The notes: generated by a model not told the origin, from the letters alone. Shown: positions 3,430-53,378, numbered from the stretch's first letter. The stretch is DNA of 64,000 bases from Bythopirellula sp. (GCA_965216565.1 OZ244170.1:448001-512000); one strand, 5' to 3'. Translations and numbers: made by a program.

Positions 3430-3864
3430 CTAGAGCAGCAGCGAGGCAATCACTAGTCGGATCGCTATCCCACTAGAAAGGTCCGGACGGCTTTCGGTGC
3501 GGGATTCGAGATGATTGGGCGAAGCGAACGAACGGCAGACCTCGTCAATCGACGCCGCATCAAACTGTTCGCTGAGCGACCAACCAAAACTTAGTTGGCG
3601 GATCTTGTTGGGAGCATCTGAGAGCGCGTGGCACATGCACGATTCGTCGCAAGGGCACTGCGAGGGAGTGGGGCAACGCTCTTCATGGCCGTAGCCGGAA
3701 GACGCCGGTGACAAATCCTGGGAGGTTGAGCACTCGCAACGAAAGACACTCTCACATCGATCCGGTGTAACTGAGGCCTGGGCGACGTTCGCTGTACCCA
3801 TGCATAGCATGGGGCAGAACAGTACCCGCAGCACGATCAGAGAAACGACGATGTGGTGGAACAT
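3430..3864 (-). CDS. Cys-rich putative leader/arrest peptide L1 heading czcBA
   Basis: 144 aa; hydrophobic N-terminus, CPCDESCMCH cluster, ends IRLVIASLLL-stop; same architecture as four other operon-leading ORFs. Confidence 0.7.
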   Translation of the reverse strand: MFHHIVVSLIVLRVLFCPMLCMGTANVAQASVTPDRCESVFRCECSTSQDLSPASSGYGHEERCPTPSQCPCDESCMCHALSDAPNKIRQLSFGWSLSEQFDAASIDEVCRSFASPNHLESRTESRPDLSSGIAIRLVIASLLL

Positions 3865-4180
3865 GGAAAATTACCGGTGAAAACTGCCTTTACCCATTCC
3901 ATTATACTATACCTATCTTGCCGAGGGGACAAGACTGGCCCCAGCAGCCGCTCCCTAGCTAAAAATCGGGAAGAATGCCTGCTTTCGCGGATCCGGAGAC
4001 GGTCGCCAAGGAGCGTTGCATGCAGTGATCTCCATTGAATGACCAGCTGGTAATGCCGTCTTGCAGCGTACCTACATTTGGCTTGGCGAATGCAATAGAC
4101 AGACCTTGGTCTTCATAGTTCAATGACGATTTTGTCGAGTTTTGGAACGAGTGCCACGCCGAATGGGAAGTAGGTTTGAG

Positions 4181-6358
4181 TTAGCGAAGCAATCGCAAGC
4201 CATTGAAGACGACCACGAGCGAAGCGCCCATGTCAGCGGCAATCGCAGCCCACAGCGAAGAATAGCCCCCAAAAGTTAGCAGCACGAACAATGCTTTTAC
4301 GCAGAGAGAAAAGGTGATGTTTTGCCGAATGATTGCCAAAGTACGACGCGAATGGTGAATCAACCAAGGGAGTTTGGCGAGGTCATCTGACATCAAAGCA
4401 ATATCAGCCGTTTCGATCGCAGCATCAGTACCTACAGCACCCATGGCAATTCCCAGTGAGGCACGGGCTAAGGCGGGAGCGTCATTGACACCATCGCCAA
4501 TCATACCAACGTGCTCGAATCTCTCGACAAGGTTTTCTACGGCGTCAACTTTGTTCTCGGGTAGTAATTCTGCATGTACCTCATCGATACCCGCTTCGGA
4601 AGCAATCTTGTCTGCTGTGCCTTGGTTGTCACCGGTCAGCATGACGATGCTTTCAACGCCAGCTTCATGGAGTTCCGACAAGGTTTGCCTGACCGTAGGT
4701 CGTAGTGCATCCGCAAGTGAAATGAAGCCACAAACATGATCGTCGTTACCTACAACTACTATGGAACGCCCTGCTTCTTGCAACGTTTGGAGTTGATGGT
4801 GAATATCAGGAGTCTCTTGGCCGCGCTGTTCCAGATATCGATGCGATCCGAGCCAAAACAGCTTACCACCAACGAGCCCTTGAGCTCCCTTGCCCTGGAT
4901 GATTTCAAAGTTGCCAGCGGGCGGGATGGAAAGGTATCGTTCATTTGCTTCGGCAACAATTGCACGTGCCAGTGGATGGTTGGAGTGCGATTCTAGTGCC
5001 GCCGCTCTCTCCAATAATTCAGTTTCGTTATGTCCGCTAAGCGGTCGGATATCAACGACTTTCGGATTACCATGTGTCAATGTACCAGTCTTGTCCATAG
5101 CAATCGCTCGCAGCTTTGCTGGTGCCTCCACGAAGACGCCACCTTTGATGAGCACGCCGTTCTTGGCTGCTGCCGCCAGTGCGGAAACGATTGAGACGGG
5201 CGTCGAAATCACCAAGGCACACGGGCATGCGATCACTAAGAGCACCAGTGACCGGTAGAGCCACACCGACCACTCGCCGGAAAACAGTAGAGGTGGAACC
5301 AGTAATACCAAAGCAGCTAAGGCCATGACGCAAGGCGTATAATACCGGGCGAATTTTTCGACCCATTGCTCAGACGGGGAGCGTTTTGACTGGGCTTCGC
5401 CAACCATTTTAATGATGCGGGCTAGCGTGGTGTCCTCGGCCTGCCTAGTGGAGTTGATTTCTAGCACGCCATCCCCGTTGATCGTTCCAGCAAATACTTC
5501 CGCATCTTTTTCCTTTTGAGCAGGTACGCTTTCTCCTGTGATGGGTGCCTGATTAACCGCACTAGAACCCTTCAGAACAAGGCCATCCAACGGAATCTTC
5601 TCGCCTGGACGAACAGTAAACGTTGTGCCCACATGCACTTCGGCCACTGCAACTTCTTTTTCGTTTCCGTGTTCGTCACGTACGCGAGCCATTTGTGGAG
5701 CCAGATCCATCAGGGCAGCAATCGCTCGACGCGCGCGGCCAACACTCCATGACTCAAGAAGTAGCGAGACTGAAAACAGGAACGCAACCGTAGCGGCTTC
5801 TAGCCATTCACCTATAGCAGCTGCACCAATTACTGCTACGGTCATCAATAGATTCATGTCTGGTCGTAAAGTCTTTGCTGCCCGCCATGCCTTGGGAAGC
5901 ACGTACCATACGCCCGACAAGATGCCGATGAGATAAGCCGCGACCGACACGACCGGTACGGAGTGTGCGATTCCCATTCCTTCAGAACCCAAGCCTGATT
6001 GCAGACTTCCACCAATCCAGACAGCAAGTACGAAACCCAGCAGGCCGAACAAACCGCTAGCTGATGTCAGGCATATGCGTCCGTAATTTTGCCAGAATCC
6101 GTGGTCGAGAGAATCGTTAGCACGATCACTCCACATTTCTGCATGCATACCAGTGCGTGAGACATAATCGATTACGTCTGTAGCAGAGACCGCAACACCT
6201 TCAGTATCAACACTCAGCTTGGCATTCAGTAGATCAAAGGATAGACGTTCAACTTCTCCAACGAGCGGTCCCAGCTTATCTCTAAGTAAAGATATCTCTT
6301 CGGCGCAATGCATGCCGTCAATTCGAAATTCAAGTCTGTTCGCCATCTTATAATCCAT
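4181..6358 (-). CDS. cadA: Heavy-metal translocating P1B-type ATPase (Cd/Zn/Pb, CadA/ZntA-like)
   Basis: N-terminal HMA GMHCAEE, TGES, CPC (IACPCAL), DKTGTLT, SNHPLA, GDGVNDAP. Confidence 0.93.
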   Translation of the reverse strand: MDYKMANRLEFRIDGMHCAEEISLLRDKLGPLVGEVERLSFDLLNAKLSVDTEGVAVSATDVIDYVSRTGMHAEMWSDRANDSLDHGFWQNYGRICLTSASGLFGLLGFVLAVWIGGSLQSGLGSEGMGIAHSVPVVSVAAYLIGILSGVWYVLPKAWRAAKTLRPDMNLLMTVAVIGAAAIGEWLEAATVAFLFSVSLLLESWSVGRARRAIAALMDLAPQMARVRDEHGNEKEVAVAEVHVGTTFTVRPGEKIPLDGLVLKGSSAVNQAPITGESVPAQKEKDAEVFAGTINGDGVLEINSTRQAEDTTLARIIKMVGEAQSKRSPSEQWVEKFARYYTPCVMALAALVLLVPPLLFSGEWSVWLYRSLVLLVIACPCALVISTPVSIVSALAAAAKNGVLIKGGVFVEAPAKLRAIAMDKTGTLTHGNPKVVDIRPLSGHNETELLERAAALESHSNHPLARAIVAEANERYLSIPPAGNFEIIQGKGAQGLVGGKLFWLGSHRYLEQRGQETPDIHHQLQTLQEAGRSIVVVGNDDHVCGFISLADALRPTVRQTLSELHEAGVESIVMLTGDNQGTADKIASEAGIDEVHAELLPENKVDAVENLVERFEHVGMIGDGVNDAPALARASLGIAMGAVGTDAAIETADIALMSDDLAKLPWLIHHSRRTLAIIRQNITFSLCVKALFVLLTFGGYSSLWAAIAADMGASLVVVFNGLRLLR

Positions 6359-6533
6359 GAATGATTTGTGAGTGTTGTCAAAGTAACGACCGTAAGTGCA
6401 TATAGTAAAGTCGTAACCTAAAAAGCCATATTAAGAAGATGAGGTCGTCATTTCGATGTTGCCGTGAGTAAGTATCCATCACTTAACATACGTGGTGTAG
6501 ATGTTGATATATATCCTTTCTGCTATGAGTCTC

Positions 6534-7379: not shown

Positions 7380-7404
7380 ATGGCACTTGTTTCTCTTAAC
7401 ACTT

Positions 7405-11643: not shown

Positions 11644-11824
11644 GACGGACTCCTGTTGAATTAATTGAATAGCGAGGGCCGATACCCGTTCGGGGTAATC
11701 GGTCGCTAAAGGACCGCTTTGGTCACCGCGCAAGACAAAGCAGCGGAGGCGGCACATCAAAGGCGAGAAGGCTTGCGAACTTGAGCGCTTTCGGGCAACT
11801 CAGTCGAAACCAAGCAGCAGCCGC

Positions 11825-12277
11825 TCAGAGCAAGAAACGGCAGAAGAGGATACAGGGTTGCTGCACGCTGCTGGAGTTGTTTTGCGTGTCAGTGAATGTG
11901 AACTGACGTAACAATTCGAGATGGTTCGATGCGGTACTTGAGACGGAACAGACATCGACATGCAATAGTTCTGAGAGGGAACGTGTCTGCTGCTGCGAGA
12001 ACGGTAATCCGCTCAGCGGTAGCTTATGACATTTGCAGGTGCAGGGCTGCCCTTGTGAGTCTGTGCAATTACAAGAGCAGCAAATAGAATCGGCATATTT
12101 TGATGTTTTGGAGTGGGATTCACATTGGCAATGTGATGTGTCGCTAGATTGACAGGGACAATCTAGCGTACAGATACAGATTGAAGCGAACACGACATGG
12201 CAAGGCATGCAAAGTGCGAGGCATACAGCCACGATAGTACGGATTGAGGCACGCTTTTTAAACATGTTATCGTTCAC
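11825..12277 (-). CDS. Cys-rich putative leader/arrest peptide L2
   Basis: Hydrophobic N-terminus, ICICTLDCPC...CCSCNC...PCTCKCH, ends QPCILFCRFLL-stop. Confidence 0.78.
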   Translation of the reverse strand: MNDNMFKKRASIRTIVAVCLALCMPCHVVFASICICTLDCPCQSSDTSHCQCESHSKTSKYADSICCSCNCTDSQGQPCTCKCHKLPLSGLPFSQQQTRSLSELLHVDVCSVSSTASNHLELLRQFTFTDTQNNSSSVQQPCILFCRFLL

Positions 12278-12856: not shown

Positions 12857-14308
12857 CTACCTGTTGAGTACAACAAGATGCCTTCCTTTGTTTGATTGAA
12901 GTAGCACAAGGAGTGCCTTGTTCTTGGGACAATGGCTGATTGCATCCTTGTAGTCATCAAGGCTACTAATCGCATGGCTATTTACGCGTAACACGACCAT
13001 GCCAGCAGCCACGCCTTCCTTGTAGGCTGGGCTTCCGCTAGCCACGTCTGTGATAAGAACTCCACGCAGTCTCTTAGGGAAGTGAAGCTGCTTAGCCATT
13101 TCAACTGTTAGCGCATCAAGACCGAGACCGAGCATATCATCGACGTACTCAGAAACGTAACTAGCGTGTTCCGCGTAATCGAGCGATTGAGTTTCTTCCC
13201 TGCTTGGTCGCCTTCCCATCTCCACGTCAACAGTGACAGACGTTCCATTACGAAAATATGTGGTAGGGTAGCTCTTACCAGGGACAGGGTCGTCGAAGAG
13301 CTTTGAGGGCGGGAACGTGTCATCAATTGGTTGGCCGTCAAAATGAGTGATTACATCCCCGCGTCTAATTCCACCACTTGCCGCCGGGGACTTCTCTTCG
13401 ACGTCTTTGACATAGAGTCCCCCTTCTACAGGCAATTCCAGCAGTTGGGCAATCTGGAGAGTTAACTTTTGGGTTTCGCAACCCAAATATCCTCGCTGAG
13501 ATACCTTCGGATCGATCAGCTCGTCGACAACTTGTCGGGCAGTATTGATAGGAATGGCTAGACCAATTCCTTGAAATTCTCTTGCTGCACTAAAGCCCCC
13601 AGTGATCATTCCCACAACCTCTCCTCGAAGGTTGAGCAAGGCACCTCCTGAGCTGCCAGGATTCGTTGCCGCATCGTTTTGAACAAACGGATGAGGTATT
13701 CCAGGTATCCAACGCTCAGTAGCACTAACGATGCCCGCGCTGACTGAGTCTTTTAAGTCATACGGGTTTGCTAGTGATACGACCCAGTCGCCCACTTGCA
13801 GGCCATCAGAGTTGCCCATCGTCACTTCATCGAGGTCACTGGCACCTTCGATGCGAAGAACAGCTACGTCTGCAACAGGGTCTCCACGAATGTCAACTAC
13901 TTCGTATTTGCTGCCATCAGGTAATACGACAAACACCACCTCAGCGGACGCAACAACGTGATTACAAGTGAGAACCAGCCCCTCGCTATCGATAAGAATT
14001 CCTGAGCCTTGTTCGTCACGCAATTCTTCTGATGGAATCATTGCTCGATGGCCTCTCTGAGGTGCAATGCGTCTCCGCCACATCTCCGTCATTCGAGGGC
14101 CCCTCAAGGTATAGATTGTCACTAGCCCCTTAGATGCACTGTCAGCAGCAGTGCGAAACGCAGCCGATAATTCTGTTGGTGGGTGGGAGTTTTTAGTTTC
14201 TTCCTGCCGAATTTCTCCCTCAGCAGCTAAGGGTTGCTCGGCCAGAAGGCAAGCTGCAAATAAAACAGCTCCCACGAAAGGCGTCCACTGCAGAATTGTT
14301 TTATGCAC
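12857..14308 (-). CDS. htrA: DegP/HtrA-family periplasmic serine protease with two PDZ domains
   Basis: Signal peptide; GSG, TCNHVV (His), DVAVL (Asp), NPGSSGG (Ser); two PDZ-like SPA..G..GD/GM segments. Confidence 0.9.
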   Translation of the reverse strand: MHKTILQWTPFVGAVLFAACLLAEQPLAAEGEIRQEETKNSHPPTELSAAFRTAADSASKGLVTIYTLRGPRMTEMWRRRIAPQRGHRAMIPSEELRDEQGSGILIDSEGLVLTCNHVVASAEVVFVVLPDGSKYEVVDIRGDPVADVAVLRIEGASDLDEVTMGNSDGLQVGDWVVSLANPYDLKDSVSAGIVSATERWIPGIPHPFVQNDAATNPGSSGGALLNLRGEVVGMITGGFSAAREFQGIGLAIPINTARQVVDELIDPKVSQRGYLGCETQKLTLQIAQLLELPVEGGLYVKDVEEKSPAASGGIRRGDVITHFDGQPIDDTFPPSKLFDDPVPGKSYPTTYFRNGTSVTVDVEMGRRPSREETQSLDYAEHASYVSEYVDDMLGLGLDALTVEMAKQLHFPKRLRGVLITDVASGSPAYKEGVAAGMVVLRVNSHAISSLDDYKDAISHCPKNKALLVLLQSNKGRHLVVLNR

Positions 14309-14864: not shown

Positions 14865-15407
14865 TTAGTGGCCATGTCCTTCGTGTCCATGCCCTTCGTG
14901 GTCATGGTCGTGATGAATCTCTCCCCGGTATTGCTTACCGCCTATCGAAACCACTAACTGTGCTTCCACACCTTCGTGGTCAAGTTCTTCAGCTAGCTCT
15001 GCATCAGAGGAATTAAATCTCGACGCTTTGCCGGAAGGATCGCTCACTTGTGGATGCGCAGCCAAGCTGAATTGCTCGGCTTGCCCATCATGGGTCAAAT
15101 TGACCAGTAGTGTGGCAGCCTCAATTGGCACTGCATTTTTTGCGGAGGAGTCGAGCAGATAGAACGTGACAGTGCCGGCATCCTCGTCATGCACAAGTTC
15201 CGCGTGGTATTCCTCATTGCCTAGTTCAATGAGGCTTCCATGGTGAGGTCCTTCCGTTGGATGGTTATGAACATCGACTGTAGCCGGTGGAGGGGCACTA
15301 ACGGGTTTGCTCTCTTGCTCTCCTTGACTACAGCCTGAAACCAGCAGTAGACCGAGGCTAAGCCCCATTGCAATTTGCTTTCGAATCTCTATAAGTGACA
15401 ACTTCAT
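14865..15407 (-). CDS. His-rich lipoprotein (putative periplasmic metal-binding protein)
   Basis: Lipobox VSGC; HNHPTEGPHHGSLIELG..YHAELVHD; C-terminal HHDHDHEGHGHEGHGH. Confidence 0.8.
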   Translation of the reverse strand: MKLSLIEIRKQIAMGLSLGLLLVSGCSQGEQESKPVSAPPPATVDVHNHPTEGPHHGSLIELGNEEYHAELVHDEDAGTVTFYLLDSSAKNAVPIEAATLLVNLTHDGQAEQFSLAAHPQVSDPSGKASRFNSSDAELAEELDHEGVEAQLVVSIGGKQYRGEIHHDHDHEGHGHEGHGH

Positions 15408-15454: not shown

Positions 15455-16141
15455 CTAATGGTCGTGATCTGGGTCCTCATGACGAACATCGAAGCCTGCT
15501 GAGGCGAGCCATTTCTCCCACTTCTCGGCAGTCTTGTGGTCGACAAATTCGACTGCAGTCCATTTTGGACAGCGAAACTGTATATCTGTGTGTCCTTCAT
15601 GCGTCACGGGCTTTACTTCACAGCGTAGTGCTTGAGCGATGGTGATGAACTGAGATGCTGCAACTTTATCAGTAAAATGTTGAGTGGCCCAAGTTGGAGT
15701 TTTGTAGAGCACAACCTCGCCATGCTCTTCATCGTGGTCGTGACCATCCTTCTCACCTTCGTGGCCATGCTTCTCGTCGTGGGCGTGTTCTTCATGATCA
15801 GGGCTATGTCCGTGGAGCGTCTCAAAGCCGGCCGCCTTCAACCAATCCTCCCACTGGTGAGCCAGTTCATCAGATTCAATGCGAAGTGGCTTCCAATTTG
15901 CTGACCGATAAATGACGTCCACGTGAGTCTCATGACTATCGACTCGAACCTCTGCACCGAGTTGCTTCACGGCAGCGGCATGTTGCTGGGCTTTTGCGGC
16001 GTCTTCGAAGTGCCTCGTGTGCCATTCCTTTAGCCGATGCGCAAGGACAAAATCCTCCTTGTCGTGATTCGGTAGTTGTGCAATCACTATGTTCTCCATC
16101 AAGGCGAACACCACCGTCATTAACAATGTGTAATACTTCAT
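15455..16141 (-). CDS. Exported His-rich protein with internally duplicated ~75-aa domain
   Basis: AAGGAGG RBS before ATG 16141 (MKYYTLL); two repeats of W..HF.D...EV...HE.H.D...W...WE.WL..AGF..H around a His/acidic linker. Confidence 0.78.
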   Translation of the reverse strand: MKYYTLLMTVVFALMENIVIAQLPNHDKEDFVLAHRLKEWHTRHFEDAAKAQQHAAAVKQLGAEVRVDSHETHVDVIYRSANWKPLRIESDELAHQWEDWLKAAGFETLHGHSPDHEEHAHDEKHGHEGEKDGHDHDEEHGEVVLYKTPTWATQHFTDKVAASQFITIAQALRCEVKPVTHEGHTDIQFRCPKWTAVEFVDHKTAEKWEKWLASAGFDVRHEDPDHDH

Positions 16142-16208
16142 TTCTCTTTCCTCCTTGGTAAAACATCCAATTCCGTAAAACGACTTGCCTGAATCAGACA
16201 TGCATGTG

Positions 16209-19200
16209 TCAGACGGTTTCTCCCTCCTCGACCAACTCAACATGCTGTTGTCCAGCTTTAATCACTCGGTGCGCTGCTCCCAGTCCGAATGTCCAGAACA
16301 GCGCCGGGCGGACGAAGAATTCAAGTACCGTGCTACTGATTAGTCCGCCCAGGATTACAGTAGCTATCGGATACAAGATTTCTTTCCCTGGTTCACCGGC
16401 CGACATTGCTAGCGGGACGAGCCCGATACCCGATGTCAACGCAGTCATGAGCACGGGGGCTAGGCGCTCTTTACCGGCTCGAATAATCATCTCTTTTGAC
16501 CAGGTTTCTCCTTCATGGCGAACGAGATGCAAGTAATGGTTGAGCAGCAAAATGCCATTACGTGAGGCAATACCGCCTAGCGAAATAAAACCAACCATCG
16601 CTGCCACTGTTAGTGTCTGGCCTGTAATCACAAGCGCTGTTACCGACCCAATGAACGCCATTGGCAATGCCACCATCACCTGCAACGCAAAATTCACCGA
16701 ACGGAACATCGTATAGAGCACCATCAGAACCCCGAACATGGATACGCTAAACAGCACACCGATAACTCGACTAGCATTCTTTTCACTTTCGAATTGCCCA
16801 CCGTATTCAACGAAATATCCTGCTGGAAGAGATTCAATTACCGAACGCTGGGCAGCTTGCATCTCGGTCACCACATCTACCAGGCCTCGACCGGAGACGT
16901 TGCACTGAATAACGATACGGCGTCGCACTAGCTCGCGGTTGATAGTGTTCGGTCCACTAGATTTATAGATCTTCGCAACCGATGACAGTGGTGCGGTTCC
17001 GCCTCCTGGCAGATCAATCGAAAGTCGCCCCAGGGCTTGCAAGTTCTCCCGGTATTTTTCATCCATTCGGACTAACAGATCAAAGGTACGCTGACCTAGT
17101 AGCACCTGACTAACGACTTCACCGTTCATGGCGGTCGAAATGTATTCATTCACAAAGACCGGGGTCAGGCCGTACTGCTCAAGTTTGTCGCGGTTCAGTT
17201 CTATGCGAAGCTGGGGAATCTCAACTTGCGGCTCTACGAGCAAGTCGGTGACGCCATCGATACCGCGCATCTTTGCCGCCATTTCCTGGGCGCTGCGACG
17301 AAGAATGCTCAAATCGTCGCCGTAAATCTTAATACCCACCTGGGCCTTCACACCGGAGATCATGTGCGAAATCAAGTGAGCTAGTGGCTGTTCAACTGTC
17401 GTAACGATGCCAGGAATGTCTTCCATCGCGTATCGAATATTGTCCAGTACTTCTTCGCGGCTGACATCAGATTCAGGGTCAAAGCTAATGAACAACTCGG
17501 TGATGTTAACGCCTTCGGCGTGCTCATCGAGTTCTGCCCGACCGGTCCGTCTTGCAAAGGCCTCGACTCCCTCAATTTGCATCAATCGCTCAATCACAGT
17601 TTGGGCGATAGTGTTCGACTTCTTCAGTGATGTACCCGGCGGCAAAACGACGTTGAGTTGAGCCACTCCCTCGTTAAACGGCGGCAAGAAATCACGCTCA
17701 AGGCTAGCAAGATAGGCGAAGGCTATCGCGACTCCACAGGCAGCTGCAAGCAACATAGCTTTTGGAATGCGAAGACTCAGCTGCATAGCGCCCCCAGCGA
17801 CCCACTTGAGAAAACGGAGCAGGGGTCCATCCTTTTCGCTTTCCATCAATTTCGCACGAGACAAAAGCCAATAGGACAAAACCGGCGTCAATGTCAGCGA
17901 GACAAGCAAAGAGGACAGAATCGAGACGATGTACGCGACCCCCAGTGGCGCGAACAGCCGTCCTTCCATTCCAGACAGAGCAAACAGTGGAATAAACACG
18001 ATGACTACGATCATCGTGCCAAAAACAATCGAGTTTCGAATCTCGACGCTGGCTTGGAACACCACCAGCAGCGGGTGTTTGGGAGATTTAGCGTGGCGAT
18101 TCTCACGGAGTCGACGGAAAATATTCTCAACATCGACAATCGCATCATCGACCAATTCTCCAATGGCAACTGCCAAGCCCCCAAGCGTCATCGTATTGAT
18201 TGATAGCCCAAAGGCTGTAAACACAAGAGCAGTGATGGCGATGGAGAGTGGAATCGCGGTTAGGGTAATAAAAGTTGTCCGGAAGTTCATCAGGAAGAGA
18301 AAGAGGATGATGACAACGAGAATACCTCCGTCACGAAGAGCTTCCACGACATTGTCTATTGCACGCTCAATGAACGCCTTTTGCGAGTACAGTTCAGGTT
18401 GAATGCGGATGTCGTCCGGCAATGATGGCTTCAGATCTTCCAGTGCCTGCATGATCTGATCGGTGACTTCACGCGTATCTGCTTTCGGCTGCTTGTTCAC
18501 GGTGAGAATAACAGCCGGGCCACCCGAAAACTCTCCATTTTCGTCCCGAACGTATGCCGAGCTGTCACCACGTTTGACTTGGGGGCCTTCAATGACGGTC
18601 GCAATCTGCGAAAGTAACACCGGGCGGCCTTCTCGCATCTTTACTACAACTCGTTTCAAGTCATTGAGAGTTTGCACGCGGCCTAGAGCACGTACAAGAA
18701 ACTCATTTGGCCCTTGTTCGTCCAAATAACCTCCGGTGGCATTTTCGTTGCTTTCTTGGCAAGCGCGCTTCACATCGTGCAGTGTTATGCCGTATTCGAG
18801 CAGCTTGTCAGGGTCGACGAGCACTTGAAATTGCATGCGACCACCGCCCATGGTGAACACTTGAGATACACCGGGGATGGTGAGCAGTCGCTGTCGAACC
18901 ACCCAATCGGCAAGCGTCCGCACTTCCAGCGGCGAGGTTTTTCCCTCTTCGCTCCACATGCCGATCATAATGATCTGTCCCATGATGGAGGAGATTGGTG
19001 CGAGCTGTGGTTTGACACCCTCCGGCATTCGGTCTTGGACCAACTGCAATCGCTCCATAACGATCTGCCGGTCGTTATAAATATCAGTCCCCCAATCAAA
19101 TTCGACGTAGATGACAGAGATGCCAACGCCTGCGGAACTGCGAACGGCTTCAACACCATTAGCACCATTGATCGCGGTTTCGAGCGGGAATGTGATCAAG

Positions 19201-20887: not shown

Positions 20888-21054
20888 GATGGAACACTCC
20901 CATTCGTGTCTAGCGCAGGTAAACGCCTTAAGACTCGAACGATGTAGGTGGTAACGCTGACGAAAAATAGTCAGGTGCAGGAAATAACCACAGTAAAGAC
21001 GGGACCTGGAAAGACCTCGCGTAATAACGCAAGGTTACTTGTCCCGCGAGCGGT

Positions 21055-21513
21055 TCAAATCAAGAAGACGCAATTAGCGAGGTGCGAGCGCACCGGTAGC
21101 GCATGTGGAGAATGAGCTACGGAGAAGGTGAGAGTCGATTCGCCGACAGGGAACAATGAAACGAATGTGGCGTCGAGAACAGGTGTCAGGGCGAACAGAA
21201 AGTCCAACTGAATCAGATCACTGCCGTCCCGCATTTCGGGTGCAGGCCACATGCACTGAGCATGGGTGCATGTATGTGGAGCGGGATGGGTCGGATCTGT
21301 GGGATGGTGAGCATGTTCCCCACATGAGTGGTTTGTTTCCAAGTGCAGTGGGACTTGCTCATTTTCTTCTTCATGACAATCTTGACCACCAACTTCATGG
21401 TGGTGATGACCGCAGACGGCATCAATAAGACTGTGTCCCTCATGCGCGCAACATCCCAGTGTCGCATGGACCAGGATTGCAGCAGCTGTGATTAGGTGGA
21501 CGTACGTACGCAT
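21055..21513 (-). CDS. His/Cys-rich putative leader/arrest peptide L3
   Basis: MRTYVHLITAAAILVHATLGCCAHEGH..HHHH..HTCTHAQC, ends VRSHLANCVFLI-stop. Confidence 0.8.
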   Translation of the reverse strand: MRTYVHLITAAAILVHATLGCCAHEGHSLIDAVCGHHHHEVGGQDCHEEENEQVPLHLETNHSCGEHAHHPTDPTHPAPHTCTHAQCMWPAPEMRDGSDLIQLDFLFALTPVLDATFVSLFPVGESTLTFSVAHSPHALPVRSHLANCVFLI

Positions 21514-23898: not shown

Positions 23899-24279
23899 CT
23901 AGTCTGGCCGTAGGCAGCATCCATTATGGTCAAGCACACCCTCATTCGGTAGGACGCCTTCGAGACGTTTAATGTAGAAGCCGGAGTTCTTCTTAAATAG
24001 TTCTTGGCAATGCGGACAACGGCAAAAGTACACGTCTTGCTCGCCAATCCTCAGTTTGGCGGCCCATCTCATTGGTTTTTCAGCCAAGCAGACAGGGCAA
24101 ACAATCAGGTCACTCGTCTCCAGAAGGTATTTCTCGGGGTGAGTGATGAACAGGTCGACACACCCCTGGCAACAGAACTGGTAGTCTTCGCGGTGATGGC
24201 TATGAAAAGTCGACAGCTCCGTGCTTATTCCCAGCCTTACAAGAGAGCAACCACACGTAGGACAAATGGGCGTCTTCAT
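23899..24279 (-). CDS. Tandem YHS/TRASH-domain metal-binding protein
   Basis: CPTCG..YQFCCQGC..F..P.KY and CPVC..VYFCRCPHC..F; start overlaps the upstream stop. Confidence 0.78.
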   Translation of the reverse strand: MKTPICPTCGCSLVRLGISTELSTFHSHHREDYQFCCQGCVDLFITHPEKYLLETSDLIVCPVCLAEKPMRWAAKLRIGEQDVYFCRCPHCQELFKKNSGFYIKRLEGVLPNEGVLDHNGCCLRPD

Positions 24280-26094: not shown

Positions 26095-26468
26095 TTGCAA
26101 CGCTCCTAGGACGGATCGGCCATCTACTTGGGTTCAGGTTCCCTAGAAGCGTACATCATGGCAGAAACCTGCTCATCATCCTAATTGACATGCATACGAT
26201 TTGTGTACTGGCCCGCGATGTTTTGGTATCGATCTACGATCGTATTTTATAGCTCTAAAGAGGTAGGGCACTCCGTGCTGTATGAGTCAACAATAGTCCC
26301 TGCGATGGAGCTGACGTATAATGGCAAGGGCAATTATCGATATGAGAGACGTCCCAGTTGACGTATCCGATACAAACGCTTGAACTCCATTCGAGGTTTT
26401 TCTAGGGCACAGTGTTGTGCTGGTTGGTCTCCTTGTTGCCGACCGATACTATCTATGAGGAGATTACA

Positions 26469-27335
26469 ATGAAAAAGTATCTAACTTTCTTTGCTGCGTG
26501 CTTAGCAACCGTCACGTTGCTGTGGCAGCCGTCGTCCGTGAGTGCCCAGCACCACCGTGGGGGACATCATGGGCATGGTGGCCACGGACACTTTAGTCAC
26601 GGGCACAGCGGTCATGGGCATTTTAGTCATGGCCATAGTGGGCGCGGCCATTATGGAGGATATGGACATTTCGGTGGTCATGCTCATGGTCTTGGTGTGA
26701 GTATCGGCCATCACAGAGTTCACGTCGGACGTCATTTTGTAGTACCCCACTACGATCATCACTATCACGGCAGCTACTGGGTCGACTCTGGCCGGTACTA
26801 CTACCAGCCGCGCACCTATGTAGTGAGCCCGCAGGTACATGTTGCGGCCAAGCCAATTGTCGTAGAGTTCGGCACCTTTTCACAAGTTGACGACTTATCA
26901 GGTCGTCTGGAGAGGCTTGCAAACGAACTCTGCCTAGACATGCATTACAACTATTCACATAACTCCGGTTTTGCCGAAACTTATCGAGAAGCGTATCAGA
27001 TTCTCGGTGCCACTAAATCCATCCATGCCACAGAGATGCAAAATGACCGAGCCGAAATCGCCCGACGAGTCCAGGAATTAGATTCCTTATTCCATCACGT
27101 GCAAAGTGAAATCAAAAAGTGGAATCGACAACATCATCGGCAGATTGGACAGGCCGGTATCTTAACGAAAACAGACGCCATGGAAGCATTGTTACATCAT
27201 TTGATGAACGATGTCGGCATCAAGCCCCATAGTTCAGAATCAATGGAAGTAGCGCCTGCTCCAGCGACTGACGAAGTCGCACCTCCTCCCGCACCAGCCA
27301 CAATCACTTCCCCCCCACCTCCGACCATACCGTAA
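26469..27335 (+). CDS. Exported His/Gly-rich protein
   Basis: GAGGAG RBS, signal peptide, repeated GHGHFSHGHS, helical C-terminal domain, Pro-rich tail. Confidence 0.8.
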   Translation: MKKYLTFFAACLATVTLLWQPSSVSAQHHRGGHHGHGGHGHFSHGHSGHGHFSHGHSGRGHYGGYGHFGGHAHGLGVSIGHHRVHVGRHFVVPHYDHHYHGSYWVDSGRYYYQPRTYVVSPQVHVAAKPIVVEFGTFSQVDDLSGRLERLANELCLDMHYNYSHNSGFAETYREAYQILGATKSIHATEMQNDRAEIARRVQELDSLFHHVQSEIKKWNRQHHRQIGQAGILTKTDAMEALLHHLMNDVGIKPHSSESMEVAPAPATDEVAPPPAPATITSPPPPTIP

Positions 27336-27389: not shown

Positions 27390-27788
27390 TTAATGGGAAC
27401 AACACCCCGATGTGCATCCCGAAGAACTAGATCCAGCCCGAGATCTATAGCTACCGCTTGAGGAGCTACCAAAGAAATCTGTCTGTGGGCGATCTTCGTC
27501 AAGCGAATCTAGTCCTTCATCCTCTTTCGGCAGGTAAGGGATTAGCTCCGGGTCAATGGAACGACCAGTTCTAGTCGCATCAATATCTTGAGTGGAGGCG
27601 AGAGAAATCGAGGGTTGCTTCGCCATCAAGGATGGCGATCCAGCTGGCGTTACTGAACCCACAGAGGGAGTTGACGAATAAGCCGGCGGCGTTACGTAGG
27701 AAGGCTCCTTCGCAACTCGACAACCGACGAAGCCAATCACACTCGTCCCAACGAATGCACATTTGAAAATTGATGATGCGTTAAGCAT
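27390..27788 (-). CDS. Small lipoprotein ending in a Cys/His cluster
   Basis: MLNASS..FVGC lipobox; ends GSSSSGCTSGCCSH; last gene of the ABC/TolC operon. Confidence 0.6.
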   Translation of the reverse strand: MLNASSIFKCAFVGTSVIGFVGCRVAKEPSYVTPPAYSSTPSVGSVTPAGSPSLMAKQPSISLASTQDIDATRTGRSIDPELIPYLPKEDEGLDSLDEDRPQTDFFGSSSSGSYRSRAGSSSSGCTSGCCSH

Positions 27789-27878
27789 GTTAATATATCT
27801 CCAGAACGGAAGCACGAGATTTGGAGTAGCAGCGTTGGTAGTTTTCAATGTGTTTTTATGGACTGGAATCCTCTAAAA

Positions 27879-29297
27879 CTAATTTGCTGGAGATGACAGG
27901 CTATTGTTGAGCAACAATCCTTCGATCTGTACATAGCTTTGCCAAAGCGACCCAAGTGCATCGAGATACACTAGATTAGTTTGTGAATAGGTTTGCTGAG
28001 CAGCCAACACGTCGAGGTAGCCTACTTCTCCCTGTTTGTAACCTCTCTGTACGAGTTCAAACGTGCGTTGCGCGCGGGGGAGAATGTCGCTCGCGTAGCT
28101 CGTTGCTGTTACGTGGGCATCGGTATACTGCCGGAAGGCATCGGCAAGCCGACGATTGAGACTCAACTCAACACGATCAACGTTTCGGACTGCTTCACTA
28201 ACTTCGGCCTGTGCTTGACGAATGCCCCCTTGGTTGCGGTTCCAAAGCGGTAAGGGTATTCCTACTTGAACGCCAGCAATCGTGTCACTAGTGGCGTCGT
28301 CATACTGCACACTTAACTGAGTACTGATGTCAGGCACTGCCTCAACACAAGCACGATTCAAGGCTCTGCGAGTTCGTTCAACTTCGGCCATTGCCGCTGC
28401 AATCTCAGGACTCTCGGTTTGCAGTCGAGCTAACTGCTGCTCCCAATCAAGTGCTTCTGGAAGCTGACTCACGTCACCCTCAAGATACTGAATGGGCAAT
28501 CCTGGGCTGACGACCACCGTTGATAGCCGTCGCCAAGCTTGAGCTTGACCATTCTGGGCGGTACGTAAAAGGACCTGAGCATTTTGCTGCTGCACTTCGG
28601 TCTGTAACATCCCAGCCACTGTACTCTCTTCCGCCTCAACAAGAGCTTTCGAAGCCTCAGCTGCCTCAGTGGTCAGCCGAACCAACTCGGCAGCTAACTC
28701 AACTCGGCGTTGGGCTAGCAAGGCCTCGTAGTAACCCTGTCTGACATCGGTAAATACTCTTCTTTGAACGGCTGCCAGTTCTTGTTCGGCACGACTGATT
28801 TCTGCGGAAACTACAGCCCGATTACGCTGAAGCTTCTTTGCCGTAATAAAATTTTGCCCAACAAAACCGCCTTGTTGCCCGGCTGCACCGTCGTTGCCAA
28901 TTTCACCAGCGACGTACCCTACTGTTGGATTTGGTGCCAGGCCAACCTGTACCCATTTGCCACGTAGCGCACGCACACGGGCTGCGGACTGTGAGATGGC
29001 AGGGCTATTAGCAAGCGCCATCTGCTCAAGTGCATCTAGATTTAGTCCGCCCGCAGGTGGAAGAGGTTGGGGTGAATCGGACCCTACCGTGCCTTCAAGT
29101 GATTCAGCGACAGACGGAGGTTGGACAAGCTCAGGTAAAACTGACTCTTCAAAGTCCACTTGGGTAATCGTGGATTTTTCATCAGCAGCATTTGCAGCTG
29201 AAGATGCTTCTGCCGGTGAATTTTTTGAAAGCGGGCTAGACGCACAGCCTCCCACAAGCACAAGTACAACAACGAAGCATATTGTTTGTTTGGCCAT
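27879..29297 (-). CDS. TolC/CzcC-family outer-membrane factor
   Basis: Lipobox GGC, PNPTVGY, GIPLPLWNRNQG, GYKQGEVGYLDVLAAQ. Confidence 0.9.
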   Translation of the reverse strand: MAKQTICFVVVLVLVGGCASSPLSKNSPAEASSAANAADEKSTITQVDFEESVLPELVQPPSVAESLEGTVGSDSPQPLPPAGGLNLDALEQMALANSPAISQSAARVRALRGKWVQVGLAPNPTVGYVAGEIGNDGAAGQQGGFVGQNFITAKKLQRNRAVVSAEISRAEQELAAVQRRVFTDVRQGYYEALLAQRRVELAAELVRLTTEAAEASKALVEAEESTVAGMLQTEVQQQNAQVLLRTAQNGQAQAWRRLSTVVVSPGLPIQYLEGDVSQLPEALDWEQQLARLQTESPEIAAAMAEVERTRRALNRACVEAVPDISTQLSVQYDDATSDTIAGVQVGIPLPLWNRNQGGIRQAQAEVSEAVRNVDRVELSLNRRLADAFRQYTDAHVTATSYASDILPRAQRTFELVQRGYKQGEVGYLDVLAAQQTYSQTNLVYLDALGSLWQSYVQIEGLLLNNSLSSPAN

Positions 29298-35372: not shown

Positions 35373-35543
35373 GGTTTTCTCCTCTTCTCAATTTATGGGT
35401 TGGCGAAGCACTGACTGCCTCCACGGAGTGAGTCAGTCAGCAAGTTTGGAAATGATCAACAGGAACTCCAGAAGTGACTCGCTATAGCAAGCCGAACTTA
35501 AGGAAGTCATGAGACGCGAGCAGAAGGCTCGCAAGAAGAGAAG

Positions 35544-36053
35544 TCAGATTAAGAAGCGGCAGAGCTCAGCGCAGCGCTGCACGGCAGATTCAGTCCATAC
35601 ATCAGCGGTGGACGCATAGTCGCATGACGCTGTCCGATCCGCACCAATTGCTGCAACAACAATCGAAGCATCGCTTTGCGTAAGGTTCCGGAGCAACAAC
35701 TCAATAGGCTCCGATGGGCCCTTCGGCAACTGCAGAGGTTGCGCGGGCTGGTGACACCAGCAATCTGGCGGACAGGGGCACGACTTGTCCTGGTCGTCTA
35801 TGCAGTCCCGTTCTGGAGAGCGAACACTAGCCTCTCGTGCTGATGTACATGCATGAGAGTGAGAGCATGATTTTGCCTCTGAGTGGGAATGCTCGCTACA
35901 CGCTGTCTCTGCAGAACAAGTGGCAGCACATCCACCAAGATGACACAGAAGATGCAAATCCTGAACGCTAGGCAATAACGCAAGCACGACCCCCAGAAGG
36001 GCTGTAATTCGCTTCGAGTTATTGTAACGGCTCAGCACGAGCTGTGACTCCAT
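35544..36053 (-). CDS. Cys/His-rich putative leader/arrest peptide L4
   Basis: Hydrophobic segment, CHLGGCAATC..CSHSHAC..CPCPPDCWCH, ends QRCAELCRFLI-stop. Confidence 0.8.
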   Translation of the reverse strand: MESQLVLSRYNNSKRITALLGVVLALLPSVQDLHLLCHLGGCAATCSAETACSEHSHSEAKSCSHSHACTSAREASVRSPERDCIDDQDKSCPCPPDCWCHQPAQPLQLPKGPSEPIELLLRNLTQSDASIVVAAIGADRTASCDYASTADVWTESAVQRCAELCRFLI

Positions 36054-36419: not shown

Positions 36420-37091
36420 CTATTTGTTTGCAGGGCGTACATAGCTGCTGGGGTTTTCAACAAATCGGTCCAGGCATCGCTTGGCACAAAAGTAGTATGT
36501 CTGCTCTTCATGTACATGAGCCAATCCTTTTGGCTTCGTCACTCTCATTCCACACACAGGGTCAAGTGCGGTATTGTCACGCTGGTACTGCTCGTGAGTT
36601 TCAATCTGCAAGTAAGAGTCAAGAAAACCGAGTAGTTTCTGCTCTGCCCACTTGCGCACGGCGTCTAAATCAACATTGCTTATGTCTAGATCGAGTACGT
36701 CACCGCGGGCGAAACGAATGAAGATGGGAAGGATCTGGGCTTCGTATTGGATAGTAAGGCTTTCGATGGTCTCATTGTGAATTATGCGAAAACCGACGCT
36801 CGCCCTGGCCGGAAACCGGATTGAATGTTGGAGTTGACAGCGAACGCAGTACCCGATCAGTGCATCTTCCAGCTTGGCATTGTCAAGATGTTCTGCAAAC
36901 GCTGCAAGCGTTGGATGGAGTACTTCGCTAACAATATGGTCGGCGAGCTCATGGAACACTACTTCTCGCTCCTCTAGCTCGCGCATAGTATGCTCCATGG
37001 AATCACGATGTTTAGCTACTTCTGCTTTGCTCGCTTCAAGACGGTTGTTAATCTGTTTTTTGAATTCGGATGAGACTGATGAAGTAGCCAT
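36420..37091 (-). CDS. Coiled-coil + C-terminal YHS domain protein
   Basis: DPVCGM..YYFCAKRC..F..NP..Y; paralog of 47908..48573. Confidence 0.82.
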   Translation of the reverse strand: MATSSVSSEFKKQINNRLEASKAEVAKHRDSMEHTMRELEEREVVFHELADHIVSEVLHPTLAAFAEHLDNAKLEDALIGYCVRCQLQHSIRFPARASVGFRIIHNETIESLTIQYEAQILPIFIRFARGDVLDLDISNVDLDAVRKWAEQKLLGFLDSYLQIETHEQYQRDNTALDPVCGMRVTKPKGLAHVHEEQTYYFCAKRCLDRFVENPSSYVRPANK

Positions 37092-47873: not shown

Positions 47874-47907
47874 GCAGTCCAAAAAGTAGGATAAAGAGTG
47901 GATTTCA

Positions 47908-48573
47908 ATGTGTGGTCTAATTGAATTTACGAGTCGAATAAAAGAAAAAATGGAGAGCGCCAATCGCGAGCCACACTGGGGACCGGGCGAAGCCCAACGC
48001 TACATGAACGAGGTAGCTGTGCGTCGCGATCGTTTTGAGAAAATTGCTTTCCAATACAACGAGAACTTGATTCAGTCTCGTATTGAAACACTCGCCAATT
48101 ACTTTATCAATGCTAACGTTACAAAGACCGAGCCGCCTGGGCATAGTGAGTGCTGGTTCGGATATTGCGAACGATTTCCGTCAAACACGAGACTCGCCTT
48201 TTCTATTGAGCACGACGTACGTTTCGAGAATGTGGCCATCTGCTACGACGTATCCATGACGCCCTTGTTCATTCGCTTCAACGAGCATGACAGGCTGACA
48301 GTGGCACTTACTGAAGTCAACGAAGATCTAGTTTGTAAATGGGTCGAAGAGCGAATTATGGAGTTTCTCGACGCCTACCTACGCATTGACCGTGGCGCCG
48401 AAGATTTCGAGGATGAGCCAGTCATCGATCCCGTCTGTGGAATGCGCATTAGTAGGTCTTCCGCCGCAAATACTGATTCATACTGTGGGCATCCCTACTT
48501 CTTTTGCTCTGAGCAATGTCGCAAAAAGTTCGAGGAGGATCCTACACATTACGCAACAATTAGAACGTTGTAG
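47908..48573 (+). CDS. Coiled-coil + C-terminal YHS domain protein
   Basis: DPVCGM..YFFCSEQC..F..DP.HY; paralog of 36420..37091. Confidence 0.82.
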   Translation: MCGLIEFTSRIKEKMESANREPHWGPGEAQRYMNEVAVRRDRFEKIAFQYNENLIQSRIETLANYFINANVTKTEPPGHSECWFGYCERFPSNTRLAFSIEHDVRFENVAICYDVSMTPLFIRFNEHDRLTVALTEVNEDLVCKWVEERIMEFLDAYLRIDRGAEDFEDEPVIDPVCGMRISRSSAANTDSYCGHPYFFCSEQCRKKFEEDPTHYATIRTL

Positions 48574-49295: not shown

Positions 49296-49324
49296 CCACT
49301 GATAATTATCGGAGAATAACAGTC

Positions 49325-50960: not shown

Positions 50961-51768
50961 GGAACTCAGACGATGGATCGATCCAGCCCATGTGCAACTG
51001 AGCGTAGCTCGCCAATGCGAGTTGCTCGGTCTACCTCGCTCGACGTGGTACTACGAACCTCTGGGCGAAACGACCGAAAACCTGAAACTGATGCGCGCCA
51101 TCGACGAGCAGTATCTCAAGACACCGTTTTACGGCAGCCGAAAGATGTCAGAAGTGTTTGGCGTCAATCGCAAGCGAATTCAGCGTCTGATGAGACTGAT
51201 GGGAATCGAAGCGATTTATCCAAAGCATCGCACCACTTGTCCAGGTGCTGGACACAAGATTTACCCGTATTTACTGCGAAATGTGGCAATTATTCGTCCC
51301 AATCAGGTTTGGAGTACCGATATCACCTACCTGCCGATGCAACAAGGTTTTTTGTATCTGGTCGCGGTGATGGATTGGTACAGCCGGTTCGTGCTGAGCT
51401 GGCGGCTTTCCAACACGCTCACAATCGATTTTTGTTTAGAGGCGCTCGACGAGGCGTTGTCTACCAAGCAACCCGAGATATTTAACAGCGACCAAGGCAG
51501 TCAATTCACCGCGACAGAGTTTACCAATCGACTCTCTACACGCGGTGTATCGATTAGCATGGACGGACGTGGCAGGGCACTAGACAACGTGTTTGTCGAA
51601 CGTCTGTGGCGTACGGTGAAGTACGAGGAGGTATATCTGAAAGACTATGGTGATGGCTGGGAAGCGAAAGCAAGCCTCACGGCCTACTTCGAATTCTATT
51701 GCCACGAACGCATTCACCAGGCGCTGGGATATCGCACGCCTGCAGATGTTTATGGCAAGCGAAACTGA
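50935..51768 (+). CDS. IS3 transposase OrfB (DDE integrase core), entered at the A9 tract
   Basis: Open from the A9 tract: ..KELRRWIDPAHVQLSVARQCELL..WSTDITY..NSDQGSQF..DNVFVERLWRTVKYE. Confidence 0.9.
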   Translation, partial: KKNLPSSAKELRRWIDPAHVQLSVARQCELLGLPRSTWYYEPLGETTENLKLMRAIDEQYLKTPFYGSRKMSEVFGVNRKRIQRLMRLMGIEAIYPKHRTTCPGAGHKIYPYLLRNVAIIRPNQVWSTDITYLPMQQGFLYLVAVMDWYSRFVLSWRLSNTLTIDFCLEALDEALSTKQPEIFNSDQGSQFTATEFTNRLSTRGVSISMDGRGRALDNVFVERLWRTVKYEEVYLKDYGDGWEAKASLTAYFEFYCHERIHQALGYRTPADVYGKRN

Positions 51769-51998: not shown

Positions 51999-52757
51999 TC
52001 ACTCCTGGCCATCATCTCTTGTGAATTGAGATGTCGAATCGTGCCGATCGTTGCAATTGTCTATCAGACTAACGATCAATGCAGACAGCGAGAGCAAATC
52101 GCCCCGGTATTCTAGCAATGCCTCAAGATCCAAGAAGCTAGCGAGCCCACGATCATAGCTAGAGGATCGAGATTGATAGAGCCAAACGCGAATATTACGA
52201 TCGACCAGCCGCAGCTTGTCAGCCATGAGCCAACCGCTGTAATCGAGCAATTGGACATTGGCCACGAGTAGTACCGGTCCCTTCTTAACGCACAAGTTTA
52301 ACGCCTCGGTCGCCGACTTGGCACGAATAACACGCACGCCTCCGTTGGCAATGTCAGTTGCTATGCGTGCGAACACCTCGTCGCGATGCTCAACTAGCAG
52401 GACAGTAGGCAACGACACTGATTGGTAAGCATTTTCTTCAAGTGTGGAAGCGTAAGACCCATCCAATCGAGCAGCGTCATTCGGTGCATCAGCTAGTGAA
52501 TGCAGACGCTGACAATGACAATCCGACATGTGTGCCGCACCATTGCCCGTTGTGCGTAGCAACTGCTCCGCTCTGGTCAACAGATCGGTACCGGCGCGAT
52601 TTTTGGCAGCTAACGAGCCATCAACGTTTTCATACACCCTGAAACTACTGCGACAGTGGCCACACACTAACTCGTCGTTGATATATTGTGACCGCATCGT
52701 TATAGGGCGACCGCAAACCGGGCAATCGACCATTACATATGCACTTTGCAGAATCAT
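51999..52757 (-). CDS. Zinc-ribbon + degenerate receiver domain protein
   Basis: CPVCG..CGHC at the N-terminus; C-terminal VLLVEHRDE..VIRAKSATEA..SGWLMADKLR, paralogous to 11110..11643. Confidence 0.72.
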   Translation of the reverse strand: MILQSAYVMVDCPVCGRPITMRSQYINDELVCGHCRSSFRVYENVDGSLAAKNRAGTDLLTRAEQLLRTTGNGAAHMSDCHCQRLHSLADAPNDAARLDGSYASTLEENAYQSVSLPTVLLVEHRDEVFARIATDIANGGVRVIRAKSATEALNLCVKKGPVLLVANVQLLDYSGWLMADKLRLVDRNIRVWLYQSRSSSYDRGLASFLDLEALLEYRGDLLSLSALIVSLIDNCNDRHDSTSQFTRDDGQE

Positions 52758-52913
52758 CCTTCTTTCCTCCATGCCAGCCGCTCACGCGGCGGAGGCAAGA
52801 TGCCATAGGCATCTAGCACGGTAAAAAGTGACGCAGAACCTTGAATATTCAACGCGTCCTAAGAGCACCAATAGCCCGTGGATTGACAATCACAAGCAGG
52901 ATGACAGGAGAGA

Positions 52914-53378
52914 TTAGAGCTGAAAGCGACAAAGTTGGACGCAGCGTTCAGAACCGCCCGTCGTGAAGTTAGCTACTAACTTTTCAAGAGAATGTTGCGG
53001 CGCATTTACGCAATTAGTCGTTGAATCGCTGTGTAACTCAACGACTAGCAGATCGTTCTCCATGGACGGACCGGTCAACGCTGGGTCGACAGCATCAGGT
53101 GCCGGCATTTTGCAGCATCCGCAGGGACATTGGCACGGTCTTGAATTCGAATCTGACGAATTCGAATTACAGCACGACGGCGTTTGGCTGTTTCCGCTGC
53201 TGCACGGACTCCACTCCCGTTGCGAGTGGGAATCCTGCCACAAACCGGCTGCCGCTAGATTTGCACGCGTTTCAGTTACACGGCAGCAGCAGGATGCCAC
53301 CACCGACTGCTGTACTGGCAACAGTAAGATTGCCAGTAGTGCTAGAGTGTTCGAAGTGTGTGAGGTGAACAGGTTCAT
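52914..53378 (-). CDS. Cys-rich putative leader/arrest peptide L5
   Basis: LALLAILLLPVQQSVVASCCC..SCC..PCQCPCGCC, ends ERCVQLCRFQL-stop. Confidence 0.8.
   Translation of the reverse strand: MNLFTSHTSNTLALLAILLLPVQQSVVASCCCRVTETRANLAAAGLWQDSHSQREWSPCSSGNSQTPSCCNSNSSDSNSRPCQCPCGCCKMPAPDAVDPALTGPSMENDLLVVELHSDSTTNCVNAPQHSLEKLVANFTTGGSERCVQLCRFQL

Follow-up and report, generated by a model that had tools for sequence, protein, structure and literature searches.

Five small open reading frames (ORFs), here called L1 to L5, lie in a 64,000-nucleotide (nt) window of the Bythopirellula sp. genome (GCA_965216565.1, OZ244170.1:448001-512000). By sequence they are paralogues within one unnamed family of proteins of roughly 145-170 residues, and we found that this family is under a length constraint between a cysteine motif in the middle of the protein and a second motif directly before the stop codon: the sequence of the spacer between them is free, and its length is held. 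On balance, and with no great confidence, we think that the family most likely works like the metal-sensing leader (upstream ORF) proteins of the CruR/CutF class.

To measure the constraint, we started from the five ORFs, for which the initial annotation had counted by hand the residues that follow the last Cys of the main cluster. A scripted translation matched these counts exactly: 66 residues after CMC in L1, 67 after CKC in L2, 65 after HAQC in L3, 69 after CWC in L4 and 65 after CGCC in L5. The annotation had also expected a narrow distribution of linker lengths among homologues despite low identity, and this expectation was borne out. The tail was taken to begin after the last Cys that was both no more than four residues away from a second Cys and no fewer than 45 residues short of the C-terminus; this rule was applied to 163 sequences (the seven paralogues of the genome and 156 database proteins). 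The tail measured 63-70 residues in 156 of the 163 sequences, with a mode of 68, and the seven outliers had tails of 49, 61, 71, 85, 87, 129 and 130 residues. A second measurement relied on anchor columns of the family alignment and covered 136 of its 143 sequences, leaving out seven with a residue other than Cys in an anchor column. Between the second Cys of the CWC motif and the first terminal Cys, the spacer spanned 53-63 residues with a standard deviation of 1.80, whereas the variable N-terminal region between two equally conserved Cys of the same 136 proteins spanned 38-88 residues with a standard deviation of 6.57. The stop codon lay exactly eight residues past the first terminal Cys in 135 of the 136 proteins.

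Because the spacer and the N-terminal region were recovered by the same profile search, the search itself does not explain the narrow spacer. A second control was to search 401 genomes with a degenerate DNA pattern restricted to the tail, which is blind to linker length; 32 further regions with pattern matches were retrieved, and the upstream ORF was read for every match ending in a true stop. The results revealed 17 family-like ORFs, all with tails of 65-70 residues (one of them needs the CWC anchor, having an extra Cys pair within its spacer), and the other matches were random short or clearly unrelated ORFs. Seven of the 17, with tails of 66-70 residues, were ones that the profile search had not picked up at a cut-off of 1e-5. 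These controls bear on the possibility that the similar tail lengths stem from common ancestry or chance, with no constraint on length. Similar lengths would indeed be expected of five paralogous ORFs at a short evolutionary distance; however, the representatives of the family share less than 50% identity overall and have near-random spacers, yet the standard deviation is 1.8 against 6.6 in the N-terminal region, and the linker-blind search yields the same 65-70 residues. We regard this explanation as very improbable.

The further claim that the linker sequences themselves are unrelated largely held for pairs of linkers. In global alignments, eight of the ten pairs of linkers scored within about one standard deviation of shuffled sequences, but L1-L2 (z 3.6) and L4-L5 (z 2.9) did not. 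At the level of the family the region does align, although each of its about 45 columns carries only 0.4-0.9 bits in the alignment profile.

The family extends well beyond the window. A motif scan of the whole genome identified two further paralogues, bringing the number to seven, and these seven align together with eight database relatives. A profile search of 1.84 billion representatives returned 229 proteins at E ≤ 1e-3, 68 at E ≤ 1e-10 and 10 at E ≤ 1e-30; nearly all matches are 145-170 residues long and match end to end, and most members have 150-170 residues. The family alignment has 143 rows, consisting of six paralogues and 137 of the 156 database proteins. It omits the L002 paralogue (Table 1) and 19 database proteins, of which five are near-identical to window ORFs, five are truncated or aberrant, and nine have at least 200 residues with long N-terminal extensions. 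Pfam and NCBIfam scans gave chance-level matches only, both for the five ORFs and for all 143 family members. DUF6769 and DUF8199, suggested by the ESM Atlas, were tried as family assignments and were not borne out, DUF6769 matching one of the 143 members at E 0.05. Judging by the taxa of the ESM Atlas clusters closest to it, which consist of unnamed proteins, the family belongs to Planctomycetota. In a phylum-wide sample, 14 of 401 genomes matched at E ≤ 1e-3, and in only three of them, besides the source genome, did the match extend to the profile's C-terminal end; in a sample of the class, 36 of 401 genomes matched at E ≤ 1e-5, including 10 of the 21 from the source genome's own family. Our literature search found no description of this planctomycete family or of its tail motif, and no paper tying CutF or DUF2946 to Planctomycetota.

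The alignment profile has four parts, running from a basic and then Leu/Val/Ala-rich N-terminus that ends in H-x-x-C and a Cys/His-rich stretch of variable length, through the motif CPCPxxCWC-x-Q-x-P-x-P-x-x-L-P, to the low-information spacer and a nearly invariant tail. The N-terminal consensus consists of R/K residues followed by a Leu/Val/Ala stretch of ~12-20 residues and is a putative export signal. The columns of the CPCPxxCWC cluster are 85-98% Cys, and the cluster is a candidate metal-binding motif. Directly before the stop, the tail reads S-A-x-x-R-C-A-x-L-C-R-F-(L/T)-(I/L), with a proline frequency of at most 0.05 in its columns; synonymous positions of the tail codons vary among the paralogues, which indicates that the tail is conserved as a peptide. 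AlphaFold2, given the 143-row alignment, produced no confident globular fold, with a mean predicted local distance difference test score (pLDDT) of 64.9 and a predicted template modelling score (pTM) of 0.30. It placed helices at residues 5-26, 112-121 (short) and 152-163 (C-terminal) and coil elsewhere, with a pLDDT of 53-60 across residues 121-150. This prediction argues against a well-defined globular domain and would be compatible with a metal-dependent fold.

The same features have to be weighed for the main rival explanation, namely that the ORFs encode conventional accessory proteins, which bind metal in their mature form in the periplasm or anchored to the membrane and serve as sponge, chaperone or CzcI-like partner of the efflux systems. 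The length would then be set by a metal-dependent fold of the spacer and C-terminal helix, or by a tether of set reach, and the H-x-x-C...C pair, CPCPxxCWC and the terminal CxxxC would together build a metal site. Such a site would account for the near-invariant Cys residues (C32 99%, C58 92%, C93 98%, C156 99% and C160 96%), and CxxxC is a known metal-binding pattern; a weak hydrophobic periodicity and the predicted helix at 112-121 also fit a folded protein. However, even 143 diverse sequences gave AlphaFold2 no confident fold, the length is held to ±2 residues although the spacer columns are near-random, and an invariant stop position is rarely needed by a mature domain. Together with the genomic evidence below, this leaves the accessory protein, in our view, a rather unlikely explanation.

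The layout of the family recalls two described copper-responsive leaders. CruR (Bp2923) of Bordetella pertussis is the 145-residue prototype of DUF2946 (PF11162) and heads a copper-regulated operon; its CXXC-RAPP spacing is 45 residues, and over 2000 DUF2946 proteins keep it with a deviation of 1-2 residues at most (PMC9426467). The same source describes that changes of ±1-2 residues are tolerated while an insertion of +5 strongly reduces copper control, that the intergenic region measures 162 nt, that regulation is Rho-dependent, and that the signal peptide is dispensable, the spacing being ascribed to co-translational folding. Like CruR, the present proteins are encoded by a small first ORF of a metal-homeostasis operon and have a Cys motif, a conserved motif only a few residues short of the stop and, behind it, an intergenic region that is long and structured (162 nt in CruR and about 165-181 nt here); their putative N-terminal export signal would be a further resemblance. 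They differ in that Pfam model matching detects no sequence relationship, in having a proline-free CxxLCRF(L/T)(I/L) tail instead of RAPP, and in a spacing of about 58 residues (63-70 to the stop) instead of 45. CruR also turns a copper importer off via Rho when copper is present, whereas control of exporters, as found here, would have to run the other way.

CutF of Rhodobacter capsulatus is described as a co-translationally exported leader, whose periplasmic CxxxC and C-terminal proline run prolong ribosome stalling with copper, and stalling melts a stem-loop that masks the next gene's ribosome-binding site (PMC9973294; bioRxiv 10.1101/2025.02.05.636593). In the geometry proposed by its authors, 45 residues would place the Cys motif in the periplasmic vestibule of SecY, with about 30 residues in the tunnel and about 17 across the membrane (PMC9973294). 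The Cys motif and a C-terminal motif adjacent to the stop recur in the present family, which is a putative exported leader too, with a stem-loop predicted behind the stop; the distance in CutF is 45 residues, and its stalling needs a PPP run and EF-P, whereas no such run occurs here. CutF-like genes, including CopL, often lie upstream of efflux genes of the OEP, CusB or CusA type, in a survey that required PP in the last 15 residues and a length below 150 residues (PMC9973294). With these two filters, the present family would escape such a survey; by length L1 (144) and L2 (146) pass, and L3 (152), L4 (164) and L5 (154) fail. CzcI of Cupriavidus metallidurans has no C-terminal proline motif and has been suggested to be a metal-sensing regulator (PMC9973294). 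It is likened to the present family by description, and the Pfam and NCBIfam scans of the family returned no match to it. In SecM, VemP and MifM, about 95-170 residues long, an export signal at the N-terminus goes together with a regulatory peptide at the C-terminus and an RNA structure that controls the next gene, but they monitor the export machinery, regulate secA, secDF2 or yidC2, and have no metal-binding cluster.

Our preference for a CruR/CutF-like function rests on this shared layout: the protein has what is probably an export signal, then a Cys cluster, a spacer of set length and a tail adjoining the stop, and the gene comes first in metal operons, with a structured region after it. 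As the family does not match the DUF2946 model and has no proline motif, we regard it as a separate variant that probably works like CruR/CutF and not as a DUF2946 member. Metal binding to the nascent chain would alter the ribosome's stay on the terminal motif, and the dwell time would decide whether the RNA just behind the stop permits downstream expression, either because the Shine-Dalgarno (SD) site is exposed or because termination is blocked. The sequences show the family, its length constraint, the fixed stop, the place in the operon and the unusual RNA past the stop; that the proteins would be exported, bind metal and make the ribosome pause, and which way they would regulate, we infer.

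The initial annotation had read the constant length as a ruler spanning the ribosomal exit tunnel plus the Sec channel, such that the Cys cluster would just reach the far side of the membrane when the ribosome sits at the terminal motif. The fixed distance between Cys motif and tail and the precedent of CruR and CutF support part of this proposal, and it is plausible that 65-69 residues would correspond to tunnel plus channel. The 47 residues estimated for CutF would, however, put the cluster about 20 residues beyond the membrane instead of just at it; if the predicted C-terminal helix compacted the chain inside the tunnel, it could offset this excess of ~20 residues. Moreover, since the export signal of CruR is dispensable and its spacing is ascribed to folding, fixed spacing alone need not imply a tunnel-plus-Sec geometry.

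The window is a heavy-metal resistance island, which contains a P-type ATPase, three resistance-nodulation-division (RND) pumps with CusB/HlyD-type adaptors, an ATP-binding cassette (ABC)/HlyD/outer-membrane efflux cluster, HMA, YHS and MerT-like proteins, MerR-type and DtxR-type regulators, and an extracytoplasmic function (ECF) sigma/anti-sigma pair. Within the genome, all seven paralogues occupy the first position before a metal-efflux or receiver-like gene (Table 1). In other genomes, 25 of 25 loci have a same-strand ORF downstream, encoding an HMA domain in eight cases, HlyD_D23 (with HMBD) in five, OEP in three and no Pfam domain in nine. One of these nine is a homologue of the L5 neighbour (43% identity over 244 residues; L030:2149-2949), and the pairing of an L5-type leader with a receiver-like gene recurs in that genome. 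The neighbours of L2 and L5 are paralogous soluble receiver-like proteins (41% identity over 83 residues), that of L5 with an N-terminal zinc-ribbon-like CxxC...CxxC, and the receiver-like protein may be a regulator under leader control. Efflux operons are a common place for accessory periplasmic proteins, and in this respect the gene order suits the main rival as well; against it, two paralogues and one homologue from another genome precede a soluble receiver-like protein and not a pump, and the leader gene is first in the operon at all loci examined. No Sec or YidC gene, the kind of downstream export gene seen with SecM, VemP or MifM, follows these ORFs in the window, and a k-mer search of the 330 nt upstream of the seven paralogues gave no convincing promoter motif.

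Table 1. Positions of the leader ORFs, their paralogues, adjoining genes and intergenic regions, and other features mentioned in the text (counted from the first letter of the window unless a contig is named; aa, amino acids).
Feature	Position	Strand	Remarks
L1	3430-3864	-	144 aa; last Cys of cluster is codon 78 (3631-3633); 66-residue tail 3433-3630; terminal motif divergent, hydrophobic end without CxxxCRF
L2	11825-12277	-	150 aa, or 146 aa from likely ATG at 12265; last clustered Cys is codon 83 (12029-12031); 67-residue tail 11828-12028, ending CxxxCRFLL + TGA
L3	21055-21513	-	152 aa, His-rich; last clustered Cys is codon 87 (21253-21255); 65-residue tail 21058-21252; terminal motif degenerate, second Cys and hydrophobic end retained
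L4	35544-36053	-	169 aa, or 164 aa from family-consensus start at 36038; CPCPxxCWC cluster 35754-35780; 69-residue tail 35547-35753; CxxLCRFLI + TGA at 35544-35573
L5	52914-53378	-	154 aa; last clustered Cys is codon 89 (53112-53114); 65-residue tail 52917-53111, ending CxxLCRFQL + TAA
L001 paralogue	C1:1389175-1389654 (L001:9175-9654)	+	precedes second HMA/ABC/HlyD/outer-membrane efflux cluster; next gene HMA protein
L002 paralogue	C1:521131-521787 (L002:9131-9787)	-	~9 kb past window end; precedes RND adaptor (with HMBD) and pump; next gene HlyD_D23 adaptor
Gene after L1	1582-3264	-	HlyD_D23 adaptor, then RND pump
Gene after L2	11110-11643	-	receiver-like protein; SD-guided start 181 nt downstream of L2
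Gene after L3	19400-20887	-	HlyD_D23 adaptor, then RND pump
RND pump after L3 adaptor	16209-19388		
Gene after L4	34671-35372	-	HMA-domain protein heading the ABC/HlyD/outer-membrane efflux cluster
Gene after L5	51999-52772	-	zinc-ribbon and receiver-like protein
Post-L1 intergenic	3265-3429	-	165 nt; predicted fold pairs last L1 codons with SD stretch of adaptor gene; 10 pairs of stop region with SD/start window, with flanks
Post-L2 intergenic	11644-11824	-	181 nt; predicted local hairpin just past stop; no predicted pairing of stop region with SD
Post-L3 intergenic	20888-21054	-	167 nt; strong predicted hairpin within 45 nt of stop, -16.6 kcal/mol; stop-to-start pairing only in fold without flanks
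Post-L4 intergenic	35373-35543	-	171 nt; pyrimidine tract 35533-35543 abuts stop and in predicted fold (z -2.18) pairs with SD stretch of next gene 35379-35389; local hairpin 35516-35532
Post-L5 intergenic	52758-52913	-	156 nt; 8 pairs in predicted fold with flanks
HtrA-type protease	12857-14308		PDZ domains; adjoins L2
His-rich protein	14865-15407	-	no Pfam family
His-rich protein	15455-16243	-	no Pfam family
His-rich protein	26412-27335	+	no Pfam family
Ser/Pro-rich ORF	27390-27848	-	152 aa
Outer-membrane efflux gene	27879-29297		
Transposase	50992-51768	+	insertion sequence (IS) type; rve integrase core
YHS-domain protein	23899-24279		
YHS-domain protein	36420-37091		
YHS-domain protein	47908-48573		

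The protease gene next to L2 brings in a further explanation, in which the hydrophobic C-terminus is a tag for a periplasmic protease of the Prc/HtrA type or a PDZ protein, the protein is a sensor or anti-regulator controlled by proteolysis, and the spacer sets the reach from the tag to the metal site. The protein ends in nonpolar residues whose distance to the stop is constant, as that of such a tag would be, and the authors of the CruR study regard nonpolar C-termini as degradation signals (PMC9426467). On the other hand, a protease gene stands beside only one of the seven paralogues, and the conserved tail of ~14 residues, with an R and two Cys, exceeds a typical C-terminal tag. We hold this explanation to be improbable, and it would be compatible with a CruR/CutF-like function instead of excluding it.

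To characterize the RNA behind the stop, we picked downstream starts by SD complementarity, with an anti-SD probe. At 19 loci the resulting intergenic lengths were 150-210 nt, 12 of them 165-181 nt, and the distance from leader to next gene was rather constant regardless of the identity of that gene, which suggests a structured RNA element of set size. Rfam gave no match at the gathering score across the whole window. Family loci were then compared with 257 control gene pairs. These stability controls were all taken from the source genome, but only seven of the 32 family loci were, and the G+C of the genomes that supplied the other 25 may not be the same. The minimum free energy (MFE) of the 45 nt past the stop had a median of -11.4 kcal/mol in the family compared to -6.7 kcal/mol in the controls, and was -10 kcal/mol or lower at 21 of 32 family loci compared to 60 of 257 controls. 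The first 12 nt past the stop were 67% pyrimidine (controls: 52%), and the excess of C over G in the first 80 nt was 0.052 (controls: 0.013). At L4-type loci the hairpin starts 8-17 nt past the stop; it is retained at nine related loci, in whose alignment three of its seven pairs have two-sided changes. Predicted pairing of the stop region with the SD/start window (at least five pairs) occurred with flanks at 7 of 19 loci compared to 31 of 257 controls (Fisher p 0.008, a value that overstates the effect given the kinship of the loci), and without flanks at 14 of 19 loci compared to 108 of 257 controls. In these folding models the enrichment of stop-to-SD pairing is real but modest. The hairpin could also be accommodated by the accessory-protein explanation, since such a structure behind an operon's first gene may serve just to stabilise that gene's transcript and raise its yield. 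A TGCGC-type motif ~20 nt past the stop was also considered and was dropped, the same k-mers being equally common 100 nt further on.

Several observations weigh against a CruR/CutF-like leader function. None of the five ORFs matched PF11162 at E ≤ 1 and none of the 143 family members at E ≤ 0.1; in the whole genome, the best DUF2946 match reached 18.1 bits, against a cut-off of 23.7 bits, and lay elsewhere in the genome. All five ORFs are free of PP over their last 15 residues, and a tail of the CxxLCRF type is not known to resemble any arrest motif. A look for RNA sequencing runs covering the L4 stretch found none. The stop codon itself varies among the seven paralogues (TGA in five, TAG in one and TAA in one). 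L1, which has no CxxxCRF tail, and L3, which has part of one, both keep the length. The terminal CxxxC is a classic metal-binding pattern and could act in the mature protein. The intergenic regions of CutF-like genes are mostly shorter than 100 nt (PMC9973294), and those found here are longer. On the RNA side, stop-to-SD pairing was predicted at a minority of the loci and is a common folding artefact, as the flankless controls illustrate, and the kinship of the loci and the single-genome controls count in the same direction.

A more specific form of the leader hypothesis, which we put forward tentatively as possible but less than probable, is that the sequence CxxLCRF(L/T)(I/L), ending at the stop, belongs to a new class of proline-free peptide that arrests the ribosome or makes it pause at termination. 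How long the ribosome dwells there would be governed by metal bound at CPCPxxCWC, about 58 residues upstream, where the chain leaves the tunnel and Sec channel, or else the two tail Cys would bind metal inside the tunnel; with seven copies of the switch, the genome would dispense with classical transcription factors in gating its RND and ABC metal-efflux operons and a receiver-like regulator. If this were so, selection across hundreds of divergent sequences would have made the strict spacer length a natural "force-profile" ruler. Conserved spacing between a Cys motif and the tail is already known from CruR and CutF; new is a planctomycete family with a different, proline-free tail. Should it be of the CruR/CutF type, metal sensing by nascent leaders would extend beyond DUF2946 and proline-based stalling, into Planctomycetota, and to the control of RND and ABC efflux operons and even of a regulator gene. 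Hundreds of sequences with a scrambled spacer held at ±2 residues and a stop fixed to the residue amount to a natural spacing experiment, and the family could help decide between tunnel-plus-translocon geometry and co-translational folding force. Annotation would gain as well, the genes now being anonymous hypothetical proteins.

Other genes of the island were also recorded. Three His-rich proteins carry HxH/HG repeats and are probably periplasmic metal binders; two of them are encoded just downstream of the RND pump at the L3 locus. The Ser/Pro-rich ORF, with a short Cys-rich tail, lies directly downstream of an outer-membrane efflux gene; it falls outside the leader family and had no family match. 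The IS-type transposase gene is situated between a Metal_resist-like gene and the L5 module, and its presence inside the island is consistent with a mobile or mosaic origin. Among the three YHS-domain proteins spread across the island, the second and third in Table 1 are paralogue-like, each with an uncharacterised N-terminal domain of ~170 residues.

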